From: a virus
Lineage: Duplodnaviria > Caudoviricetes
Strand: one strand, 5' to 3'
DNA length: 64,000 bases
IMG/VR virus record: IMGVR_UViG_3300038393_003049
Coordinates: 6,167 to 70,166 of that record
Below, piece by piece: positions 15,989-28,466 of the stretch (the stretch's first letter is position 1; each line of letters starts with the position of its first letter). The notes below the pieces were generated by a model, which had not been told where the DNA came from, ran no database searches, and saw only the letters and a list, made by a program, of their open reading frames with translations. The position numbers and the translations under genes are program-made.

Positions 15989-16678
15989 TCACTTGGCCAG
16001 AACGTCCTTGAGTCGCTGAGAAAGCAGCTCCATCGATCGGACCACGGCGTCGGCGCGCTCGGAAAGCCAGGAGACGAACAGCGCGAAGTACCGGTCCTCG
16101 GCGGCATTGACGTTCGCGTGCGCATTGCGCGCATCCACCGTCGACTTGCCGTCTCCGTAGTTGTTGAAATGCCAGGCAAACCATTCGGTGAAAACGCCCT
16201 TGGCGAACCGCGCATCCGACTTGAAATCCGCGGCCCGCCGCGTCCAGTCGAACAGCCCGAGGGTGACGACGAACATGAGGTTCTCGCGTTCGCCGGGCGC
16301 GAGCCGGAGCCAGTCCTCCTCGTAGGCGCCGCCCGGCAGCCGGCGCCAGACCTTGTTCCCCGTCGCATCGAGGATCGGTGCGCCGGCCGCGTCCAGCTCC
16401 TCGGTGCGGACGGCGCACCGGATCTGGTCGACGATCAGGAATGCGTCGGCGAAGGCGTCCATGATCAGCTCGTTGACCTTGCGGTGCATCGCCTGCCGCA
16501 CCTCGGCGTCGGCCGGCCGCCACTCCAGCCGCATCCGGGAGTGGCCGGCCCGTCGGCCGAACGCCGTGGTCCGCTCCTCGGGCAGCACCGCGTCGTCGAA
16601 CGGCTCGGTCATCGCCTCGGCCTGCAGCTCGGCCTCTTCGTCGGCCGCCGTCTTGCCGGATGCGCGTACGTCAGTCAT
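15989..16678 (-). CDS. Hypothetical helical protein
   Basis: ATGA-coupled to the upstream gene; typical codon bias. Confidence 0.6.
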   Translation of the reverse strand: MTDVRASGKTAADEEAELQAEAMTEPFDDAVLPEERTTAFGRRAGHSRMRLEWRPADAEVRQAMHRKVNELIMDAFADAFLIVDQIRCAVRTEELDAAGAPILDATGNKVWRRLPGGAYEEDWLRLAPGERENLMFVVTLGLFDWTRRAADFKSDARFAKGVFTEWFAWHFNNYGDGKSTVDARNAHANVNAAEDRYFALFVSWLSERADAVVRSMELLSQRLKDVLAK

Positions 16679-17301
16679 GCCGCTCTCCCCAATCGCTCCA
16701 GCCAGGCCAGCCCGACGGCCGCCGCATCCCGCTTGTGTTCGTTGGTCAACAGCTCCCGGCCTTCCAGCCAGTCCAGCTCGTTCAGCGCGGCGCCGACCTG
16801 GCCCTTGGTCACGTTCGTCCGGCGACCGGTGAGCAGCCACTTGGCCGACTGGTTGGCCGGCATCACCGGCACCAGTCCGAGGTCGGCGCAACAGATCCGG
16901 ACCACGGCGCCGGCCAGGATCGCCGACTCCGGGCGCCGCAATCGGCCACCGCCGGTCGGCGGGGCCTCGTGCGCGATCGCCGTCACAGTCGTGGCGTACC
17001 GGTCGAGCACGGCACGGATCTGGGTGCACAGGAGCACGACGTCGGCGAAGGTGTCGGCCCAATTGCCGGCGCCCTCGCCCAGCCGGGTCCGGCACATGCC
17101 GGCGGCGAGCACCTGGCAACGCCGACCGTCGTTGTCGACGACGGCCCACCCGGTGTTGCGCATCGACTGGTCGAACGCGAGCACTGACCCGACTCCCAGC
17201 CGAGCGGCCGTCAACGGCGCCCAGACGGCCTTACGCCGCCCCTTTGGCGGCGCCGGCACCGAGTCATACCCGGGCAGGCGGAAGTCCTCCAGCGCGGTCA
17301 T
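16675..17301 (-). CDS. RuvC-like Holliday junction resolvase
   Basis: VLAFDQSMRNTGWAVV, IAHEAP, DAAAVG acidic triad. Confidence 0.8.
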   Translation of the reverse strand: MTALEDFRLPGYDSVPAPPKGRRKAVWAPLTAARLGVGSVLAFDQSMRNTGWAVVDNDGRRCQVLAAGMCRTRLGEGAGNWADTFADVVLLCTQIRAVLDRYATTVTAIAHEAPPTGGGRLRRPESAILAGAVVRICCADLGLVPVMPANQSAKWLLTGRRTNVTKGQVGAALNELDWLEGRELLTNEHKRDAAAVGLAWLERLGRAA

Positions 17302-18003: not shown

Positions 18004-19551
18004 TCACGAGCCGCCGCCCTTGGGCCGTTCCGCGGTGATCAGCTCGCCCGGCAGCGCGCGAGGTGCCGGTAGCCGGTGGACCGACTTCGGGTGCTCGCCG
18101 TTCAGGCACAGCACGCAGAATGCGAACGGATCGGCGGCCGCCAGCTCGGCGCGCACCCGCATCAGGATGTGTCCCAGCTTGTTCTGCCCCTGGCCGCCGA
18201 CCGTTCCCCACTCCCTGTCACCCCAGTCGTTGCCCTCCTCCAGGTAGGCGTCCCCCGTGGAGAGCAGCAGGTCGCGCAGATCGGGATGGGTGGCGAACTT
18301 CAGCCGGCACAGGTCGAGCATGACCTGCTCCTTGATCTGCTCCCAGTCCGGCCGCCGGCTCAGCGACCGACCCAGCTCCTTGGCCTCCCGTGGCGTCTCC
18401 GCCGACGCCACCGATCGATGGATCAGTGGGTCGGTCGACTTCATCGCCTGGAAGGCGTGCTCGTTGGTCGGGTAGGTCGCGTCGTCCCCGAGGTCGATCG
18501 GCGCCCGGTAGAAGTTCGACAGGCCGGCGTACCGGCCGAAGAACCGCGAGATCACCCGGTGCCGCACGACCTCGATGCCAGCCGCCTCGGCCCGGTCGGC
18601 GCAGTCGGATGCGCCACGGGAGTCGTTCCAGATGAAGGCGTGGCAGCGTTCGGCACCGCGGTCGACCATCGCCTGGTTGCGGGCGAACCCGGCGCCATTG
18701 CCCCGCGGCCCGCTCCAGTCGGCGGGCATCCGGTCGACGATGACACGGTCGGCGTTGGCCCGGCCCCAGTCGTCGGCGAACCGGTCTACCCCGGAGGGGC
18801 AGGCGCCGTGCCGCAGCGTGAACGGGCCGTCCCGGCGCAGCTCCGCGTCCAGCACCTCGTGCACGTTCGAGGCTCGGGTGCACTCCCGGCTGCCAGTGAC
18901 CAGCACGACCCGGGTGGCGGCCAGCAGTTGGGCGAGCACCGCGACGTCGTGCCGGAGCAGTCGCTCGCCGTCGGTGCCGCGCAGCGCGTACGACGGGTGC
19001 ACCGCCGGCAGGTGCACCCGGCCGTTGGGGAGGACGCGGGGGACGCCGTGGCAGGCGGTGATCCGCGGTGCGTCCGGCCAGACGGCTTGAAGCGGCACGT
19101 TGCCGAGCGTCACCACGATCGGCGCGCCGATCAGCTCGATCTCCTGACGCAGGAAGCCGGCGGCCTCGGCCTGCTCGACCTCGGTCGGGGTCCGGTTGTG
19201 CCCCGACTCATCGACCGGGCGCGCCTTGATCAGGTTGGTCCGGTACAGCCACCGGTTACGGTCGATGGAGAACTCGGCCAGCAGTGCGTCCAGGAGCTGG
19301 CCGGACGCGCCGACGAAAGGCTCGCCCTGCGCGTCCTCGTCCTTGCCCGGCGCCTCGCCGACCAGCAGCGCTCGTGGGTGCGGGTTGCCCATCGAGTCGG
19401 CGACGTACGGCGTGAGCACGCCGGCCTCCAGCTTGGCCAGCACCGGGTTCGCGCGGTACTCGCCGGCCAGTGCGCTCAGCTTCTGGTCGAGGAAGTAGAA
19501 GGCCTCCTCGTACTCGTCGGCCGGCTCCCACGGCCGCCAGCGCGGGCTCAT
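18004..19551 (-). CDS. Fusion: family-4-like uracil-DNA glycosylase + SLOG (DUF2493/YspA-like) + NADAR
   Basis: LVGEAPG..ED..GEPFVGASG and HPSY; VLVTGSR...HGACPSGVD...AG..RN..MV; LSNFY...TNEHAFQAMK...KF...EGNDWGD..WG...G+NKLG.ILM.VR. Confidence 0.85.
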   Translation of the reverse strand: MSPRWRPWEPADEYEEAFYFLDQKLSALAGEYRANPVLAKLEAGVLTPYVADSMGNPHPRALLVGEAPGKDEDAQGEPFVGASGQLLDALLAEFSIDRNRWLYRTNLIKARPVDESGHNRTPTEVEQAEAAGFLRQEIELIGAPIVVTLGNVPLQAVWPDAPRITACHGVPRVLPNGRVHLPAVHPSYALRGTDGERLLRHDVAVLAQLLAATRVVLVTGSRECTRASNVHEVLDAELRRDGPFTLRHGACPSGVDRFADDWGRANADRVIVDRMPADWSGPRGNGAGFARNQAMVDRGAERCHAFIWNDSRGASDCADRAEAAGIEVVRHRVISRFFGRYAGLSNFYRAPIDLGDDATYPTNEHAFQAMKSTDPLIHRSVASAETPREAKELGRSLSRRPDWEQIKEQVMLDLCRLKFATHPDLRDLLLSTGDAYLEEGNDWGDREWGTVGGQGQNKLGHILMRVRAELAAADPFAFCVLCLNGEHPKSVHRLPAPRALPGELITAERPKGGGS

Positions 19552-19886
19552 CGGAAACCCTTCTGCGAATCGTTCGACATTTCGTTCATCATCTGAACCC
19601 GATCTGCGACATGGTCAAGTAACGCCGTTAATGACGCCGACTGTTCCTGCGTCAGATGTACGCGGAGTGGACGCCAGCCCTGACACGTCATCGTTATATT
19701 GTCGCGCTGGCGAATCTTGTTGGCGAACCTGCGTGCCTCTCGCGGCGAGAAATACATTTTCATTACGGAACCGACGGTCGGCTCTTTGTCAGCACTCAAA
19801 CTGGAATCCCATGCCACCAAGCGAACAAAGAATCTAGACGTACTACGATGTACGACCATCGTGACGTCGAACATCCAGGGCGCCAT
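19548..19886 (-). CDS. Hypothetical protein, noticeably lower GC
   Basis: ATGA-coupled at both ends; AT-richer codons. Confidence 0.5.
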   Translation of the reverse strand: MAPWMFDVTMVVHRSTSRFFVRLVAWDSSLSADKEPTVGSVMKMYFSPREARRFANKIRQRDNITMTCQGWRPLRVHLTQEQSASLTALLDHVADRVQMMNEMSNDSQKGFR

Positions 19887-20302
19887 CAGTCCACCACTAT
19901 CGTGCGCATGCTGTACCAAGTTCCCTTTCCCTCTACGGCCGTCACCCGGATATCTCCGGGACTGACTCCGGCCAGCACGTCCTCCTCCCGCTCCACCGGG
20001 ATCTCCGCGGCGCAGGCAAGGGCCACCTCGGCGAGCGCACCCCGGCTGTCCTGCCAACCCGGCAGCACGGCGACCAGATCGGACCTCAGCACCGCCTCGC
20101 AGTCCCAGCGCAACGCCCGCCTGACGTTCCATCCGCCGGGAGGCTGAGGCATCAGGCGAGGGTCGAAGCCGGCGTCCATCGCGTGTTCGGCGGGAGACAG
20201 CACCTCGAACCCTGCCGCGCGCAGCCGGGCGGCACCGTCGATGAAGGCCGGCCAGTTGAGCAACGGGAGACCACGCATCGGGCCGGACAGGTAGACGATC
20301 AT
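19886..20302 (-). CDS. DUF4406 / nucleoside deoxyribosyltransferase-like protein
   Basis: IVYLSGPMRG..NWPAF..A...LRAAG..V.SPAE...LPGWQDSRGALAE. Confidence 0.8.
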   Translation of the reverse strand: MIVYLSGPMRGLPLLNWPAFIDGAARLRAAGFEVLSPAEHAMDAGFDPRLMPQPPGGWNVRRALRWDCEAVLRSDLVAVLPGWQDSRGALAEVALACAAEIPVEREEDVLAGVSPGDIRVTAVEGKGTWYSMRTIVVD

Positions 20303-21629: not shown

Positions 21630-22240
21630 GCCGACATCTCCGGCGTCCACGCCGGACCCAGGTAGCTGAAGCGGGGGATCACGCCGTGCGGGACAGTTCC
21701 CGGCTTGGGCGTATGCAGTTGCGCGTAGTAGTAGGCCGATCCGTCGGGCCACACCCAGTCGAAGAACTCGCGTGCCTCGCGCACCTTCGACCTCGGACCC
21801 GGCTTCGGGCTGCCGTCGAGCTGGAGCGCAGTGTAGGCGACCATGACGAGGTCGCCGAAGCCGTTGGTCGAGTTCGCGACGTACCCGGTCACCTGGTACA
21901 AGTGGCCCTTGTAGTGACGGTAGATGCCGGCCTTCAGCTCCTGCAGCCCCTCATTGCCGTGGCGGAACTCGGGGTGCGGGTCGTCCAGAACCTCGATCCT
22001 GGTGTCGGCGGTGATGAACTCGGCCATCCCTTCGTCGCCGACCAACTGCCGGCCGATCAGCTCCACCATCTGCCCCTCGTGGGTGAAGGTCTGCTTACAC
22101 AGCGGACCGACGCTCACGACGTAGTACTCCCCGCCGACCTCGCCCGGCCTGCCGTAGGCCAGTTCCTCCAGCGGGATGTACGAGCGAGTCACCCGGACGC
22201 ACATGCCGACCAGTCGGTCAAGCACGGTCAGTGCACTCAC
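21626..22240 (-). CDS. DUF1653-like domain protein
   Basis: GIYRHYKG.LYQV......V.Y.AL......VR...FF. Confidence 0.65.
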   Translation of the reverse strand: MSALTVLDRLVGMCVRVTRSYIPLEELAYGRPGEVGGEYYVVSVGPLCKQTFTHEGQMVELIGRQLVGDEGMAEFITADTRIEVLDDPHPEFRHGNEGLQELKAGIYRHYKGHLYQVTGYVANSTNGFGDLVMVAYTALQLDGSPKPGPRSKVREAREFFDWVWPDGSAYYYAQLHTPKPGTVPHGVIPRFSYLGPAWTPEMSA

Positions 22241-23394
22241 TCCTCCTCCTCGGGCATCAGGTCGACGATCGAACCAGGGTCCACGCCGGGCGGCAGCTCG
22301 CCCGGCTCGTGGGCCAGCGAGGCGATGGCGCGAGCACGGATATCGGCGACCAGATCGGGGTTCTTGCGCAGGTGGTCCACCGCCGCCGGCTTGCCGTTGT
22401 GCCGGGTGTCGTCGGGCATGACGTACCAGGCCCCCTTCTGGTCGATCACGGCCAGGCGTACGCCGAAGGTCAACGCCTCTTCGGCCAGACCGATGCCGGC
22501 CGGCCCGTACTGGTCGGTGGGTCGGTTGTAGATCCAGACGTGTGCGGGCGCGTTGCGTGGCCCCAGCTTGTTCTTGGTGACCCGCACGACGGCCTGGTAG
22601 CCGACCTCGGTCTGTTCGCCGTCGATGAGCATCTTGCGCACGGTCTTGGCGTCGTACCCGCGGCCGACATCGAACCGCACGCTCGTCATGTGGGCCAGAC
22701 AGAAGCCGCCGGTCGCGGTGGTCCCCGCCCGGCCGGATGAGTCGATCTTGGCTCGAAGCTGGTTGACCATCCAGGTGGTCGTCCCGTTCTGGGCGCCGAG
22801 TCCGCACACCTGCTTGGCCAAGCGCGTCATGATGCGCGCGATCAGCGCAACCTTGGCGTCCTCGGACAGCGCCTCTTGCTCAGCCCGACCGAGCATCGCG
22901 CCGACCGAGTCCAGCACGACAATGGAGTTGTAGCTGCCCTCAACCAGCATGTGCACGGCGTCCGCGGCGTCTTCGGCGCTGGCGGGCTTCGTCACGATCA
23001 CCAACCGATCCAGGTCGACACCCAAGGTCGCGGCCCAGTCGGGGTCGAACGTCCCCTCTGGGTCGACCCAGGCGGCGAGCTGATTGGGGTACGACCGCTG
23101 AGCGGAGGCGACGGCCAACATGGACAGGCTGGTCTTGCCACACGCCTCGGCCCCTTGTACCGAGATCAGCCGGCCGCGCGGGATGCCGCCGACGCCGAGC
23201 GCGTAGTCGAGCGCGATCGAACCGGTGGAGAAGATCTCTGGTTTGACCATCTTGCTCGCACGGGTGGCGCCAGCCGCGCCAAACTTGGCGGTGAACTTCT
23301 CCTCGAAGGAGTTGAACGCGCGACCGCTCGCCGTCCTTGGACCATCAGTCGGAAGGGTCGGCGGTGCCGGCTCAGCTTGCTTGCGTGGGGCCAT
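22237..23394 (-). CDS. recA: RecA recombinase
   Basis: STGSIALDYALGVGGIPRGR, GAEACGKTS, VVLDSV, NQLR, KNKL. Confidence 0.95.
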   Translation of the reverse strand: MAPRKQAEPAPPTLPTDGPRTASGRAFNSFEEKFTAKFGAAGATRASKMVKPEIFSTGSIALDYALGVGGIPRGRLISVQGAEACGKTSLSMLAVASAQRSYPNQLAAWVDPEGTFDPDWAATLGVDLDRLVIVTKPASAEDAADAVHMLVEGSYNSIVVLDSVGAMLGRAEQEALSEDAKVALIARIMTRLAKQVCGLGAQNGTTTWMVNQLRAKIDSSGRAGTTATGGFCLAHMTSVRFDVGRGYDAKTVRKMLIDGEQTEVGYQAVVRVTKNKLGPRNAPAHVWIYNRPTDQYGPAGIGLAEEALTFGVRLAVIDQKGAWYVMPDDTRHNGKPAAVDHLRKNPDLVADIRARAIASLAHEPGELPPGVDPGSIVDLMPEEEE

Positions 23395-23420: not shown

Positions 23421-23436
23421 TCTAAGACATCTTACC
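23421..23436. promoter_or_regulatory. Operator-like motif upstream of recA
   Basis: TCTAA-GACATC-TTACC, near match to TCTAA-N6-TTAGA. Confidence 0.45.
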
Positions 23437-26400
23437 ACTGACCGGCACCAGACCGGTCAGCTTCAGCCCTCGTTCGTCCTTGCGCAGCGCGCACACCACG
23501 AGCGAATGGAGGGTCAGGTGACGCTCCACCCGGTTCAGCATCTCCGACCAGCAGACGGCTTCCATCGTGCCGTCCACGCCGCGCAAGGAGATCCGCGCGT
23601 AGGGCTTGCCGTCCCTGGTCTGAAGCAGGGCTACCGCGCTGACGACGGCCACCGCCGCGTACTCGTCACCGGGGTCGGCGGCGTCGATCACGGACGGCAG
23701 ATCGCTGACCGCCAACAGGTCTGCCGGGAAGTCATCGAACGGCGTGCTGCTCAACCAGGCCCCCAGGGTCGCCAGCTCGCGGTCGCGCAGCTCGGACGCG
23801 GTGTACGGCTCGATGGTCGCCGGGTCGAGCGGCGGCGGCGGCAGGTACTGCCGGCAGGCGATGGTGCACCGCTTCGGTGGCGGGAGCAGCACGAGATGCT
23901 TGTTCTTCCCGCGGCCGGCAAACTTCGCGGTGACTCCCTCGATCTTCTCGCGGCCGGCCCAGTCGAACCGGCAGGGCAGGCCATTCGGCGTCTCGTCGTC
24001 CCGGTACGTGCAGCGGATCTCCTCGCCACTGGCCTCGCGCGCCAGCCGAAGCTCCAGCGCCCGCCGGTGGGAGTAGAGGGAGTCCAACGCACCGACGGCC
24101 GCCAGCGCCCGCACCTGACCCTGATTGATCTTGGACCCCTTCGGGGCGACTGCGCGGCTGATGAAGTCGTCGTAGGAGGTGTACGGGCGACCGGCGACGA
24201 TGGCCGGTGCGCAAGCGTCGCCGATGCCCTTGATGCTGGCCAGCCCGAACCGGATGCCTAGTCCGGCCGGCGTGAAGTCGATACCGGACTCGTTGACGTC
24301 CGGCGGAAGGACGGGCACCGCGAGCCGGCGCGCCTCATCGACGAACTCCGGGATGCGGTCGGAGTCGGTATGGGTCAGCACCGCGGTCATCATCTCGTGC
24401 GGGAAGTGCACCTTCAGCCAGGCACACCAGAACGAGACCATTGCATATCCCCACGAGTGGGCCTTTCCGAAGCTATACCTAGCAAACTCCTCCAACTGCG
24501 CCCAAAGTACATCGATCGCCTCGGGGGAGGCGCCGTGCTCGATGGCCCTGCGCCGGAACTCGACGCCGGCCTCGCGCATCTTCTCCGTCAGCTTCTTGCC
24601 CAACGGCTTGCGGATCTTGCCGTCGGCCTCGCCGAGTGTGTAGCCGGCCAGCACCACGGCGATCCCCATCACCTGCTCCTGGTAGACCACCGCGCCGTAG
24701 GTGTCGCCGAGCACCTCGGCCAGCCGCGGGTCGGGGTAGGAGACCGGTTCCTGGCCGAACCGGCGCCGCAGGTAGGTCTTGGTCAGGCCTGACTCCCGTG
24801 GACCCGGCCGGCCGAGCGCCATGATGGCCGAGAGGTCTGCCACCGAGCGCGGCTTGAGCTGCCGGCACAGCCGCCGGCCGTCCGGCGTCTCGATCTGGAA
24901 CATGCCGAGGGTGTGGCCCTTGCAGATGGCGTCCCAGACCTGCGGGTCCTCGTACTGCCGGTGCCAGTCGTAGATCGGCACCCGGTAGCCGTACCGCTCG
25001 TCGATGAGGTCCATTGCCTGCTGGAGCGTGTCCAGCGTCTCCAGGAAGAGGAAGTCGTACTTCAGGTACCCCAGCGCATCGAGCTGTCGGTAGTCAAACT
25101 GGGTGACCATGACCCGGGAGGCGTCGTCCTCGTCCTCACCGGACCGCATCGGCAGGTCCGTCAGCGGCGCATCGGTGGAGATGACCAGGCCGGCGGGATG
25201 CTTGCCGTAGGTCCGCAGCAGGCCGCAGATCCAGCCGGCGAGATCCCACAGCTCCGGCGCCGCCGCGTAGATCGGGGCCAGCTCCTGCTCGTACAGCCGC
25301 CAAACGTCGTCCCATTCGGGCGGGAGACCGGACAGGGTCGCGGCGTAACTCTTGACGACCTTCCGGAACGCCTCGATCAGATACCAGTCGACATCCGCGA
25401 CGCCGGTCTGGGCCAGCACCTTGCGCGCACCCTCCACAGCGGACAACACGCGCATCCGGGAATGGGTGCCGATCCGGACCACGTGGTCCTCGCCCCAGCG
25501 CTCGCGCACGTACCGGTGGATCGCCTCGCGCTTGGACGTGGGGAGGTCCAGATCGAAGTCCGGCATCTCCACCCGCTCCTCGGTGAGGAAGCGCTCGAAC
25601 GGCAACCCGGCCTCAAGCGGATCCACCTCGATGATGTCGGCCAGCCAGGCGACGTAGGAAGCGCCCGAACTCCCGCGACACGGCCCCACGAGGATGCCCT
25701 GCGACTTAGCCCACCGCACGATATCGGCAGTGACCAAGTAGAACCCGCACAGCTCGCGGGAGATGAGCAGCTTCATCTCCCGCTCGAACCGCGCGGCACA
25801 CTCCGCCTCCGGCCGGCCGCGGTCGACGACCTTGCGCTGCCAGTTGGCCAGGCACATCTCGATCAGCCGCTCACCATCGCGCCGTACGGCGTTCTCACCT
25901 TTGCTGAACACCGGCTTCTTCAGCGCGCCCTCGACCCGCGCAGTGCACCGATTGGCCACCCGCACGGTGTTGGCCATCGACTCGCGCACGACGTCGTCAC
26001 CGAGGTACGAGATCGCGGCGGCTACCTCATCGGCCGTCAGGAACGGCTCGAAGTGGCCCTCCAGCAGGTAGGAGCCCTCCTTCACCGACGGCTGCATCCG
26101 CAGCCACGACTTGTGCCTCTCGGCTTCTTCGCGGTGGGTGTAGTGGCTGTCGGCGACCACGACCAGCGGCACGGAGAACTCGCGCGCCAGCTCGACCAGC
26201 TTGATGTTGGCCGCGCGCTGCTCCGGGATGTCGATCGTGCCCAGCTCGACGTACAGCCTGTCGCCGAAGATCTCCAGCAGGCGGGCCAGGTTCTCGCGCG
26301 CCTCCTCCTCTCGGCCCTTCGACAGCGGCTTGCAGATCGGCCCGCCCAGGCATCCGGTAGTGGCGATGACGCCGTCGCCCAGCCGCTCCAGGGTGTCCCA

Positions 26401-27198
26401 GTCCAGTCGCGGGGCCTTGGAGTACATCCCGTCGCGGTACGCCTCGGTGGACATCGCCCAGAGGTTGCGCAGGCCTTGCGGTGTCATCGCCAACAGGGTC
26501 AGGTGCCAGTACCCCCACTGCGCCTCGTCCGCGTCGGAGCGGCGAACCTCCTTACCGTCCTCGCCGACCTCCGTCCAGCTCTTGGCCCGGCGGAACCGGT
26601 CCGGCTGGAAGTACGCCTCCATCCCGTGCAGCGCACGGATCCCCGCCTTGTCGCACTCGACCTGCATGTCCGGGTGGGCACAGCAGTTGCCGTGGTCGGT
26701 CGCGGCGGCCGCCGGCTGGCCGTCAGCGACGGCGGCGGCCACCACGGCCTTGATCCGCTGGCAGCCATCCAGCTCGCTGAACTCGGTGTGCAGATGCAAG
26801 TGCACGAACCGGCCGGTCAGGCCCGCCGGCTCGGCGGCCGTCGACTTCTGCGCGGCGGGCAGCGCCACCACGGAGGCGAAGGTCGGCAGTTGGCCGGCCG
26901 GCCACGGCCGCCACCCGACCGGTACCAGCACGCCCTCCGAGGCGCGCTCCTGCCGGTCGGCCAGGAACTGGTCGGCGGTCAACACGTCGTAGCCGTCGGC
27001 ACGCACGCGCACGAGCAGGGCCGCGCCGGAGGAGTGGGCTTGTACCCAGGTGCTGACCCGGATGCCGTCCTGGTCTGGTCCGAGCACGAGCAACCGGATC
27101 CCGTTGTCGTCCTCGACCAGGCACGGAACGGGGTAGGTCTGACCGTCGGCCTGAACGGTGGTTCCGTCGGCGGACAGGTCTTCAGCGAACTGCCACAT
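23422..27198 (-). CDS. dnaE: DNA polymerase III alpha subunit with ~130-aa N-terminal extension
   Basis: HLHLHTEFS PHP domain, RGSS, MPDFDLD, KYDFL, FQIE, VYQEQVM, YSFGKAHS, OB-fold; start codon uncertain. Confidence 0.95.
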   Translation of the reverse strand: MWQFAEDLSADGTTVQADGQTYPVPCLVEDDNGIRLLVLGPDQDGIRVSTWVQAHSSGAALLVRVRADGYDVLTADQFLADRQERASEGVLVPVGWRPWPAGQLPTFASVVALPAAQKSTAAEPAGLTGRFVHLHLHTEFSELDGCQRIKAVVAAAVADGQPAAAATDHGNCCAHPDMQVECDKAGIRALHGMEAYFQPDRFRRAKSWTEVGEDGKEVRRSDADEAQWGYWHLTLLAMTPQGLRNLWAMSTEAYRDGMYSKAPRLDWDTLERLGDGVIATTGCLGGPICKPLSKGREEEARENLARLLEIFGDRLYVELGTIDIPEQRAANIKLVELAREFSVPLVVVADSHYTHREEAERHKSWLRMQPSVKEGSYLLEGHFEPFLTADEVAAAISYLGDDVVRESMANTVRVANRCTARVEGALKKPVFSKGENAVRRDGERLIEMCLANWQRKVVDRGRPEAECAARFEREMKLLISRELCGFYLVTADIVRWAKSQGILVGPCRGSSGASYVAWLADIIEVDPLEAGLPFERFLTEERVEMPDFDLDLPTSKREAIHRYVRERWGEDHVVRIGTHSRMRVLSAVEGARKVLAQTGVADVDWYLIEAFRKVVKSYAATLSGLPPEWDDVWRLYEQELAPIYAAAPELWDLAGWICGLLRTYGKHPAGLVISTDAPLTDLPMRSGEDEDDASRVMVTQFDYRQLDALGYLKYDFLFLETLDTLQQAMDLIDERYGYRVPIYDWHRQYEDPQVWDAICKGHTLGMFQIETPDGRRLCRQLKPRSVADLSAIMALGRPGPRESGLTKTYLRRRFGQEPVSYPDPRLAEVLGDTYGAVVYQEQVMGIAVVLAGYTLGEADGKIRKPLGKKLTEKMREAGVEFRRRAIEHGASPEAIDVLWAQLEEFARYSFGKAHSWGYAMVSFWCAWLKVHFPHEMMTAVLTHTDSDRIPEFVDEARRLAVPVLPPDVNESGIDFTPAGLGIRFGLASIKGIGDACAPAIVAGRPYTSYDDFISRAVAPKGSKINQGQVRALAAVGALDSLYSHRRALELRLAREASGEEIRCTYRDDETPNGLPCRFDWAGREKIEGVTAKFAGRGKNKHLVLLPPPKRCTIACRQYLPPPPLDPATIEPYTASELRDRELATLGAWLSSTPFDDFPADLLAVSDLPSVIDAADPGDEYAAVAVVSAVALLQTRDGKPYARISLRGVDGTMEAVCWSEMLNRVERHLTLHSLVVCALRKDERGLKLTGLVPVSGKMS

Positions 27199-27263
27199 GG
27201 CCACCCGAGCCTCGGGAGCGTGGACTCCCGAGGCTCGGCCTCCCTTCAGATCAGCTCGCCGGA

Positions 27264-28466
27264 TCAGGAACCGTTGAGCTGCGCCAGCAGTCGCGCCCGC
27301 GTTGCCGCCGCATCGCTGGAACCGCCGGCCGGCGCCGCCGCGGAGGTCGCCGCCGCGGGGACAGGAGCCACCACGGCCGGCTGTGTGGGCGCGGCCGGCG
27401 CGGGAGTGGCCGGCGCCGGCTGCGTGACGGCCGCTGGCGGGCTCTGCGGGGCCGGCGGGGGAACGTCCTCGATCTCCTCCCGCAGGGCCGCCAGCGCGTC
27501 GCTGGGGACCTCCACGGCCGGCTGCGCCGGGCCGGCCGCCTGAGCGCCGCCGTCGCCGAGGAAGAAGTGGTTCAGGTAGTCCTCCGACCCGAGCCGCCCG
27601 ACGTGCGCCCGCAGCAACGGCACGCTCGGGTACAGCTCGGCCATGATGTCGGCGTCCCGCAGGTCCAGGACGACCTCCTGGCCGGTCTTGGGGTGCTTGA
27701 TCATGGTCGGGTCGTCGGCCGCGAACACGTACTTGGTGTCGGTGCCGCGGTACTTCCGGGTGATCAGCCACACCCGGTTGAGCAGGGTCGGGTCACGCCG
27801 GCTGACGGCGTTGATCGCCGCGGAGACCGCGACATCCCAGAAGTTCTCCTTGCCGAACTCGGCGAGCTGGATGTCCGGCACCCGCTCGGAGGTCTCCGCG
27901 CCGTCGCGGAAGACCTTGACCTCGCGGGTGGCGTCCTGCCAGCCGACGAAGTTGCCGGCCGCGTCCTTGACCTCCTCCTGGATGACGACCAGGCCGAAGG
28001 TCCGCAGGGACTTCTTGACCGGCCGGCCGTCGCCGTCCAGGAAGTCGTGGATCTGGCACCGCGCGGGGACGAGCCGGCCGGCCTCGTCCCGGGTGGCGAA
28101 GATCCGGTCGGTCCGGCAGGCCGCCGTCATCATCTTCGGCAGCTTCTCCTTGACCTGCTCGCCGTCCTTGTTCCGGACCATGCCCGGCCGCCGGCAGGCG
28201 GTGCGGGGGTGGACCAGGCAGGAGACGGTGAGCTGGACGTGCTCGGCGCCGGGCGTGCGCCGGATGTCGGTCAGGAACCGGACGGCCTTCGTTTCGCCCT
28301 CGATGCCCTCCTTGGCCTCCTTCAGCGAGAAGAACGGCAGGATGTCGAGACGGGATCCGCGGTTCGCGGCCTGCTCGGCGTAGAGCCGTTCCAGGGCGTC
28401 GTAACCCTCGGACTCCTCCCAGTTCAGGGTCTCTTCGATCGCGGGTGCTGTGGTCGCTTCGGTCAT
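27264..28466 (-). CDS. Putative single-stranded DNA-binding protein (gp32-like)
   Basis: K.VRFLTD, Cys/His cluster, ITRK..GTDTKY motif, low-complexity tail; sits beside dnaE. Confidence 0.6.
   Translation of the reverse strand: MTEATTAPAIEETLNWEESEGYDALERLYAEQAANRGSRLDILPFFSLKEAKEGIEGETKAVRFLTDIRRTPGAEHVQLTVSCLVHPRTACRRPGMVRNKDGEQVKEKLPKMMTAACRTDRIFATRDEAGRLVPARCQIHDFLDGDGRPVKKSLRTFGLVVIQEEVKDAAGNFVGWQDATREVKVFRDGAETSERVPDIQLAEFGKENFWDVAVSAAINAVSRRDPTLLNRVWLITRKYRGTDTKYVFAADDPTMIKHPKTGQEVVLDLRDADIMAELYPSVPLLRAHVGRLGSEDYLNHFFLGDGGAQAAGPAQPAVEVPSDALAALREEIEDVPPPAPQSPPAAVTQPAPATPAPAAPTQPAVVAPVPAAATSAAAPAGGSSDAAATRARLLAQLNGS

Follow-up and report, generated by a model that had tools for sequence, protein, structure and literature searches.

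What would a phage do with a protein that joins a uracil-DNA glycosylase (UDG), a SLOG domain and a NADAR domain in one chain? The question is raised by a gene in the stretch of DNA analyzed here (the window), which is 64 kb of a 70,166-bp IMG/VR virus record (IMGVR_UViG_3300038393_003049) with a CheckV completeness of ~48%. A single open reading frame (ORF) of this window encodes the fusion protein, P0001. Our answer, to which we give a probability of about 0.5, is that P0001 serves an uncultured high-GC phage, the host of which is probably actinobacterial, as a DNA-directed enzyme that is linked to replication and clears lesions. The ORF and its parts are laid out as follows.

18004..19551, minus strand: whole ORF of the UDG-SLOG-NADAR fusion protein P0001, 515 aa, uninterrupted from ATG to TGA
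19396..19551, minus strand: residues 1-52, clade-specific N-terminal helical extension with a WRPW motif (alignment, model)
18922..19395, minus strand: residues 53-210, UDG-fold core (Pfam, NCBIfam, Foldseek, motifs)
18547..18921, minus strand: residues 211-335, SLOG domain of the YAcAr (DUF2493) family (Pfam, invariant columns, fold matches)
18130..18546, minus strand: residues 336-474, NADAR domain of the YbiA type (Pfam, NCBIfam, motif residues)
18004..18129, minus strand: residues 475-515 and the stop codon, disordered C-terminal tail (alignment, AlphaFold2 model)

An earlier note on this DNA had read the ORF as a family-4-like UDG (GEAPG and HPS motifs, with KARP for KCRP) joined to SLOG and NADAR domains, and all three domains score above their Pfam cut-offs: UDG at residues 54-195 (E = 7.9e-24; 84.8 bits against a cut-off of 24.3), the YAcAr SLOG family (PF10686) at residues 215-280 (E = 9e-10; 38.7 bits against 28.2) and NADAR (PF08719) at residues 340-470 (E = 5.6e-26; 92.2 bits against 35.1). 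PHROGs and NCBIfam are consistent with these calls. In the N-terminal extension, W5, R6, P7, W8 and P10 are invariant in the alignment and helices are modeled at residues 13-34 and 36-42; it sits where canonical family-4 UDGs have the CxxC part of their iron-sulfur (Fe-S) site and is shared by a stand-alone UDG, P0077 (W.PW.P).

Before any function is considered, it has to be asked whether the fusion could be an artefact of assembly or sequencing, or a decaying pseudo-fusion. Three other contigs from other samples, two from SRA runs (120.5 kb, in run SRR35145397, and 3 kb) and one from a JGI metagenome (24.6 kb), carry an identical 515-aa protein, and over 5.3 kb a single base separates the JGI copy (L089) from the window. 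An orthologue, P0002 (491 aa, on a 148-kb contig), is 52 to 55% identical, is syntenic and has the same three domains, and the alignment of the two proteins is unbroken through both domain junctions. Third-position GC of the P0001 gene is 0.87 to 1.00 in all 30-codon windows, including those at both junctions and in the C-terminal tail; the frameshift at the domain junctions that the earlier note had wanted excluded is not seen. Amino acid identity between P0001 and P0002 is 56 to 57% in each of the three domains, so that none of them is decaying, and the AlphaFold2 model of P0001 is confident (mean predicted local distance difference test [pLDDT] score, 89.4; predicted template modeling [pTM] score, 0.81), with disorder only at residues 1-5 and 478-515. 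The P0001 gene and its upstream neighbor overlap, start on stop, in the sequence ATGA, and a GAAGGG box precedes the P0001 start. We consider an artefact or a decaying gene refuted and give it practically no weight. A Nei-Gojobori ratio of nonsynonymous to synonymous substitution between P0001 and its orthologue (0.5 to 1.0) was discarded as uninformative, since third positions that are ~90% G/C in both genomes compress the synonymous distance. Outside the shared domains, the tail of P0001 has a CxxC...H....H string in a segment that P0002 does not have, and P0002 and a further orthologue, P0003, have a Cys/His-rich insert within the SLOG domain that is missing from P0001; these may be zinc-binding elements.

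For the UDG domain, Foldseek matched 1L9G, 4ZBX and 1UI0 (E = 1e-11 to 1e-12; template modeling score of 0.77 to 0.83 on the target), a fold match that covers both family-4 UDGs and UdgX. Motif A (GEAPG, residues 65-69), the stacking F79, the uracil-contacting N106, motif B (HPS, 185-187) and R191 are all present, and the clade alignment shows no variation in either motif, which include E66 and H185, or at F79, N106 and R191. None of the four Fe-S cysteines is found in the domain: KARP (109-112) stands for KCRP, the Cys that follows NRTP is replaced by Ala, an N-terminal CxxC is missing, and the sole cysteine, C167, is not conserved. P0001 is not alone in lacking the KCRP cysteine: related UDGs of ~290 aa, several of them annotated from Alphaproteobacteria, read WRPP at this position. 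Nor was the KRRIH loop of UdgX, with its cross-linking His, found; P0001 has a shorter loop (VDESGH), the His of which is K, R or G in relatives and which is absent altogether from P0002, and the UdgX model TIGR03914 gave 87 bits against a cut-off of 189.95. Judged by the residues that it retains, the UDG domain would remove uracil, or at least bind DNA and flip bases. Separately, a possible UDG-like nature of the DUF1643 domain of another protein, P0161, was set aside when a profile comparison with the UDG alignment gave no match (probability 0.2).

The SLOG domain keeps the motifs TGSR, HGxCxxGxD, PADW, RNQxMVD and SxG as invariant alignment columns and, modeled alone, reaches a pLDDT of 93. 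Foldseek with this domain alone gave an E value of only ~1e-3, and fold matches were taken from an all-against-representatives aligner. With VIA-align, the model matched YpsA (Z, 12.3; root mean square deviation of 2.9 over 120 aligned residues), ShosA (12.1), DprA (11.8), the molybdenum-cofactor carrier protein (MCP; 10.9), the ThsA SLOG domain (9.9) and LOG enzymes (9.3 to 9.7). Its family includes a protein that carries the annotation "DprA-like DNA processing chain A" in deposited phages, 775 in all, with mycobacteriophages accounting for 602. The best match, at 53% identity, is gp71 of Streptomyces phage TaidaOne, in which the YAcAr domain is joined to PF24083, a putative phage domain for binding single-stranded DNA (ssDNA). 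We found no functional study of the YAcAr/DUF2493 family in the literature searched. Phosphoribohydrolases of the LOG type have a PGGxGTxxE motif that includes the catalytic Glu. This motif is not kept in P0001, where the stretch reads SRGASDC and the invariant C317 occupies the position of the catalytic Glu. The domain may bind ssDNA or a ligand of the ADP-ribose type.

The NADAR domain passes the model for the riboflavin-intermediate N-glycosidase domain, TIGR02464 (82.3 bits against a cut-off of 73.7), and matches Escherichia coli YbiA at 87 bits. Residue roles in ADP-ribose binding and catalysis are known for the Phytophthora nicotianae enzyme (PMC11543638), and E364, K371, E439, D445 and W448 of P0001 align to its E43, K50, E125, D130 and W133. 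The motif set is thus present, with the Glu and Lys of EHxFQxxK, the D..W pair and, at E439, the Glu of the YbiA type, which is neither the Asp of DarT1-linked NADARs nor the His of the T4 type. Over 142 residues, the domain is 50% identical to the product of bas33_0070 of phage Bas33, a protein identical to AdfN^Bas32 (PMC11825919). AdfN^Bas32 neutralizes DarT1 and restores the growth of three phages sensitive to DarTG1, but does not counter the thymidine-specific DarTG2 (PMC11825919). P0001 itself does not look like a DarG1-type antitoxin (BC4488 subfamily), given Glu rather than Asp at E439 and a SLOG domain, rather than a basic extension, N-terminal of the NADAR core, and no ADP-ribosyltransferase match that could mark an adjacent darT1 was seen among the ORFs scanned near its gene. 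By analogy with AdfN^Bas32, the NADAR domain would be expected to hydrolyze ADP-ribose from guanine in phage DNA.

The location of the gene adds to this picture. It lies within a DNA replication and recombination module, between the DnaE and RecA genes and a gene for a RuvC-like resolvase, and the neighbors are the following.

23422..27771, minus strand: DnaE-type DNA polymerase III alpha of 1449 aa, which heads the block
22237..23394, minus strand: RecA/UvsX-like recombinase, in the same minus-strand block
19886..20302, minus strand: nucleoside 2-deoxyribosyltransferase-like gene of the DUF4406 family, 138 aa, second gene upstream from that of P0001 in the same operon-like block
19548..19886, minus strand: 112-aa gene with no assigned function, directly upstream, its stop overlapping the P0001 start (ATGA)
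16675..17301, minus strand: RuvC-like resolvase, downstream of the P0001 gene; it follows the UDG gene in related phages too

The DnaE of the window has no intein domain match; its counterparts at L002:2054-7147 (1697 aa) and L005:59-4771 (1570 aa) have Hint/LAGLIDADG or intein-splicing domains. Elsewhere in the window, the ORF at 2544-3701 matches the 2'-5' RNA ligase/LigT 2H phosphoesterase superfamily (PF13563; E = 2.9e-12), a further enzyme type tied to the processing of ADP-ribose-phosphate or cyclic nucleotides in the same phage. Macro, Thg1, dUTPase, ThyA, ThyX and 5-hydroxymethyldeoxyuridine (5-hmdU) kinase families were not found in the 70-kb record, so that the part of the genome it covers gives no sign of thymine hypermodification or of a second ADP-ribose enzyme.

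How unusual is the combination, and where did it come from? When 1.84 billion cluster representatives were scanned exhaustively with phmmer, the triple architecture was found only in P0002, and a word-indexed search of 5.8 billion clusters returned only P0001 and P0002; the architecture that the earlier note did not recognize is thus as rare as it had implied, with two lineages in the scanned set. None of 50,697 deposited phage genomes has a protein covering at least 80% of P0001, no cultured actinophage with a UDG of the P0001 type was found, and the 4 kb around the gene has no nucleotide match among deposited phages. The RecA of the window phage is only 41% identical to that of cluster-E-type mycobacteriophages. 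The phage is without a close cultured relative.

The related loci that we could compare share a slot in the replication module, filled in different ways. In the locus of P0002 (L002), DnaE, RecA and three small genes are followed by the triple fusion and then the RuvC-like gene. In L005 and L006, a 226-aa UDG with the N-terminal extension stands by itself, flanked by the DnaE-RecA block and the RuvC-like gene. The L003 protein, complete at 352 aa, is a UDG-SLOG; a Thg1-like gene (tRNA-His guanylyltransferase family; L003:1207-1587) comes directly after its gene. The SLOG-like domain fused to the UDG in L004 and L009 is more divergent, and the next genes encode RusA and a PRA-PH pyrophosphatase. 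Since the slot holds the UDG alone, UDG-SLOG or the triple fusion, the UDG is the resident gene of the lineage, and most likely SLOG and then NADAR were added to the C-terminus of a replication-module UDG.

Similar joins turned up, unexpectedly, in unrelated phages. One of the NADAR matches, P0083, reads Macro-NADAR-UDG-Exo-PolA; it has 1113 aa, and three contigs of independent samples carry it. A search seeded with its N-terminal half returned a second protein of this kind (P0225), together with Macro-UDG-Exo-PolA (P0226), DUF4326-YAcAr SLOG-UDG-Exo-PolA (P0231), NADAR-PolA (P0248), NADAR joined to an SF1 helicase (P0250) and Macro-DprA joined to a DUF1156 methylase (P0241). The informative polymerase fusions came from the exhaustive and the P0083-seeded searches; a word-based search for longer fusions of P0001 gave one UDG-PolA. 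Between the UDG domains of P0083 and P0001 the identity is only ~29%, and the domain order is different; the polymerase fusions therefore arose independently of P0001. The loci of P0083 and P0225 are L091 and L092. In the wider set of fusions, DUF1156 proteins, some of which carry a DNA methylase annotation, are also joined to Macro or NADAR (P0239-P0241, P0235-P0246 and P0268); these are long proteins of cellular and metagenomic origin, and P0239-P0241 also have a DprA-type SLOG. One 1007-aa protein, P0247, combines NADAR with the helical domain of a 5-hmdU DNA kinase and an N6/N4 DNA methylase, a combination that may connect NADAR with enzymes of thymidine hypermodification.

We imagine the enzyme as follows. 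The ancestral part would be the family-4-like UDG without an Fe-S cluster, resident in a DnaE-RecA-resolvase module, and it would remove uracil or flip bases; the NADAR domain would strip ADP-ribose from guanine in phage DNA; and the SLOG domain, by binding ssDNA or an ADP-ribose-type ligand, would tether or regulate both glycosidases at replication and recombination intermediates. The suggestion in the earlier note of a DNA de-modification enzyme stands in part. It gains indirect support from the 50% identity of the NADAR domain to an anti-DarT1 NADAR, from the position in the replication module and from the independent fusions of NADAR, Macro and SLOG to UDG-bearing polymerases, but nothing ties the UDG to a host deaminase rather than to ordinary uracil.

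Several points weigh against a lesion-clearing enzyme of this kind. Its UDG domain is without the Fe-S cluster cysteines, and the NCBIfam model for family-4 UDGs, TIGR00758, gives it 95.5 bits, below the cut-off of 125.3; on both grounds the domain is family-4-like only and is not assignable as a family-4 member. SLOG and NADAR are accessory, since the UDG by itself suffices for some sister phages. NADARs in general hydrolyze guanine-ADP-ribose in vitro, but cells were not protected from DarT1 by YbiA or by the T4 enzyme (PMC11125620), and homology thus leaves the physiological target of the domain unfixed. An analysis of phage SLOG-NADAR and SLOG-Macro proteins favors soluble ADP-ribose signals as the substrates (PMC9503650). 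Finally, the record covers only ~48% of the genome.

The last but one of these points leads to the main alternative, in which the SLOG-NADAR half binds and cleaves soluble NAD-derived messengers or toxins, such as isomers of cyclic ADP-ribose (cADPR) or ADP-ribose-1''-phosphate, and the UDG is an unrelated housekeeping repair domain. Iyer et al. have argued for such a role of viral SLOG, NADAR and Macro domains and have described SLOG-NADAR fusions (PMC9503650, PMC7824862); two-domain SLOG-NADAR proteins without a DNA domain are frequent (P0086, P0098, P0108, P0117 and P0133), and the SLOG model matches the ThsA SLOG domain that was solved with 3'cADPR bound. We nevertheless consider this reading unlikely, if the strongest of the competitors, because it leaves unexplained why sister phages fuse SLOG by itself to the UDG (P0003, P0079, L009) and why polymerases of the UDG-PolA type, helicases and DNA methylases repeatedly carry SLOG, NADAR or Macro. 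The closest SLOG domain of a cultured phage is, moreover, fused to a putative ssDNA-binding domain, and the P0001 gene lies in a replication block, not among early or virion-delivered genes.

SLOG might instead act as a ligand sensor, detecting NAD or ADP-ribose derivatives that come from host defense, or ADP-ribose released by NADAR, and switching the DNA enzymes on or off. Where SLOG is sporadically fused to nucleic-acid-processing domains, such a role has been proposed (PMC9503650), and in P0001 the domain stands between two catalytic domains in a model whose pTM would suggest fixed packing. There is no evidence for allostery, however, and the closest SLOG structures, which include both ssDNA-binding DprA and ligand-binding ThsA, do not separate a ligand from ssDNA; we regard a sensor as quite improbable. 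Even greater doubt attaches to an N-glycosidase of the nucleotide or metabolite pool, with NADAR acting like YbiA on reactive ribosylamino-pyrimidine intermediates, SLOG acting like LOG on nucleotides and the UDG acting on the resulting uracil in DNA. The TIGR02464 and YbiA scores and the match to LOG structures fit this proposal, and the DUF4406 gene in the window and the PRA-PH pyrophosphatase-like genes at L004 and L009 point to nucleotide-pool functions nearby. But YbiA-type NADARs, E. coli YbiA included, hydrolyze ADP-ribosylated guanine (PMC11125620), the nearest tested phage relative is the anti-DarT1 factor AdfN^Bas32, the LOG motif is not kept, with C317 at the position of the catalytic Glu, and no riboflavin genes were seen near the P0001 gene.

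Returning to the lesion-clearing enzyme, one can envision a broader and decidedly tentative model that would take in the polymerase fusions as well: unrelated phages may build NADAR or Macro erasers and SLOG onto a UDG-fold, base-flipping reader, which would hand adducted or uracil template bases to the attached hydrolase. This would amount to replication-coupled DNA de-ADP-ribosylation, with P0001 as its polymerase-free form. ADP-ribosylation of DNA by DarT toxins is a recently recognized anti-phage defense, and the known phage answers to it are small, free-standing proteins; P0001 and the polymerase fusions suggest that some phages wire an eraser and a base-excision domain into their replication and repair machinery. 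They provide a testable model for a replisome facing ADP-ribosylated templates, a first functional handle on the common "DprA-like" SLOG protein of actinophages and a reason to look again at the unexplained UDG domains of phage PolA enzymes.

Set against known systems, P0001 is a new combination of known domains. A literature search for UDG together with NADAR found nothing relevant, and the union of UDG with SLOG-NADAR, and its recurrence, are absent from the literature searched. SLOG-NADAR, SLOG-Macro and DUF4326 fusions have been described, with no UDG or DNA glycosylase mentioned as a partner (Iyer et al., PMC7824862, PMC9503650). Since SLOG-NADAR is already described, only the link to UDG is new: the C-terminal two thirds of P0001 correspond to the described phage SLOG(YAcAr)-NADAR architecture, and P0171, a DUF4326-SLOG-NADAR protein, has DUF4326 where P0001 has UDG. 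The substrates proposed for the systems of Iyer et al. are soluble signals.

With the family-4 UDGs of Thermotoga maritima (1L9G) and Thermus thermophilus (1UI0), P0001 has in common the fold, the GEAPG and HPS motifs, the stacking Phe and the uracil-reading Asn; it differs in having its own WRPW helical extension at the N-terminus and in the missing cysteines. It shares the UDG fold with UdgX but not the KRRIH loop or the covalent His. Compared with the DprA-like proteins of actinophages, its SLOG domain is 37 to 53% identical and has a fold close to YpsA and DprA (Z of ~12); theirs stand alone or with PF24083, whereas that of P0001 stands between two N-glycosidase domains.

UDG-PolA polymerases of the SPO1-like and N4-like kinds, described in a classification of PolA without mention of ADP-ribose domains (PMC10201439), likewise place a family-4-type UDG in phage replication machinery. 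Some such polymerases, as seen here, carry an N-terminal Macro, NADAR, SLOG or DUF4326 module, of which we found no description in the PolA or NAD-ADP-ribose survey papers. The window phage, in contrast, uses DnaE, and the UDG of P0001 is not fused to a polymerase. AdfN^Bas32 of the T5-like phages Bas32 and Bas33 and the NADAR/YbiA hydrolases of guanine-ADP-ribose (PMC11825919, PMC11543638, PMC11125620) are also close, and P0001 shares with them the fold, the Pfam family and the residues of the Glu (YbiA) form. They are, however, free-standing proteins of ~150 aa, whereas the NADAR domain of P0001 is the C-terminal third of a three-domain protein encoded in a replication module.

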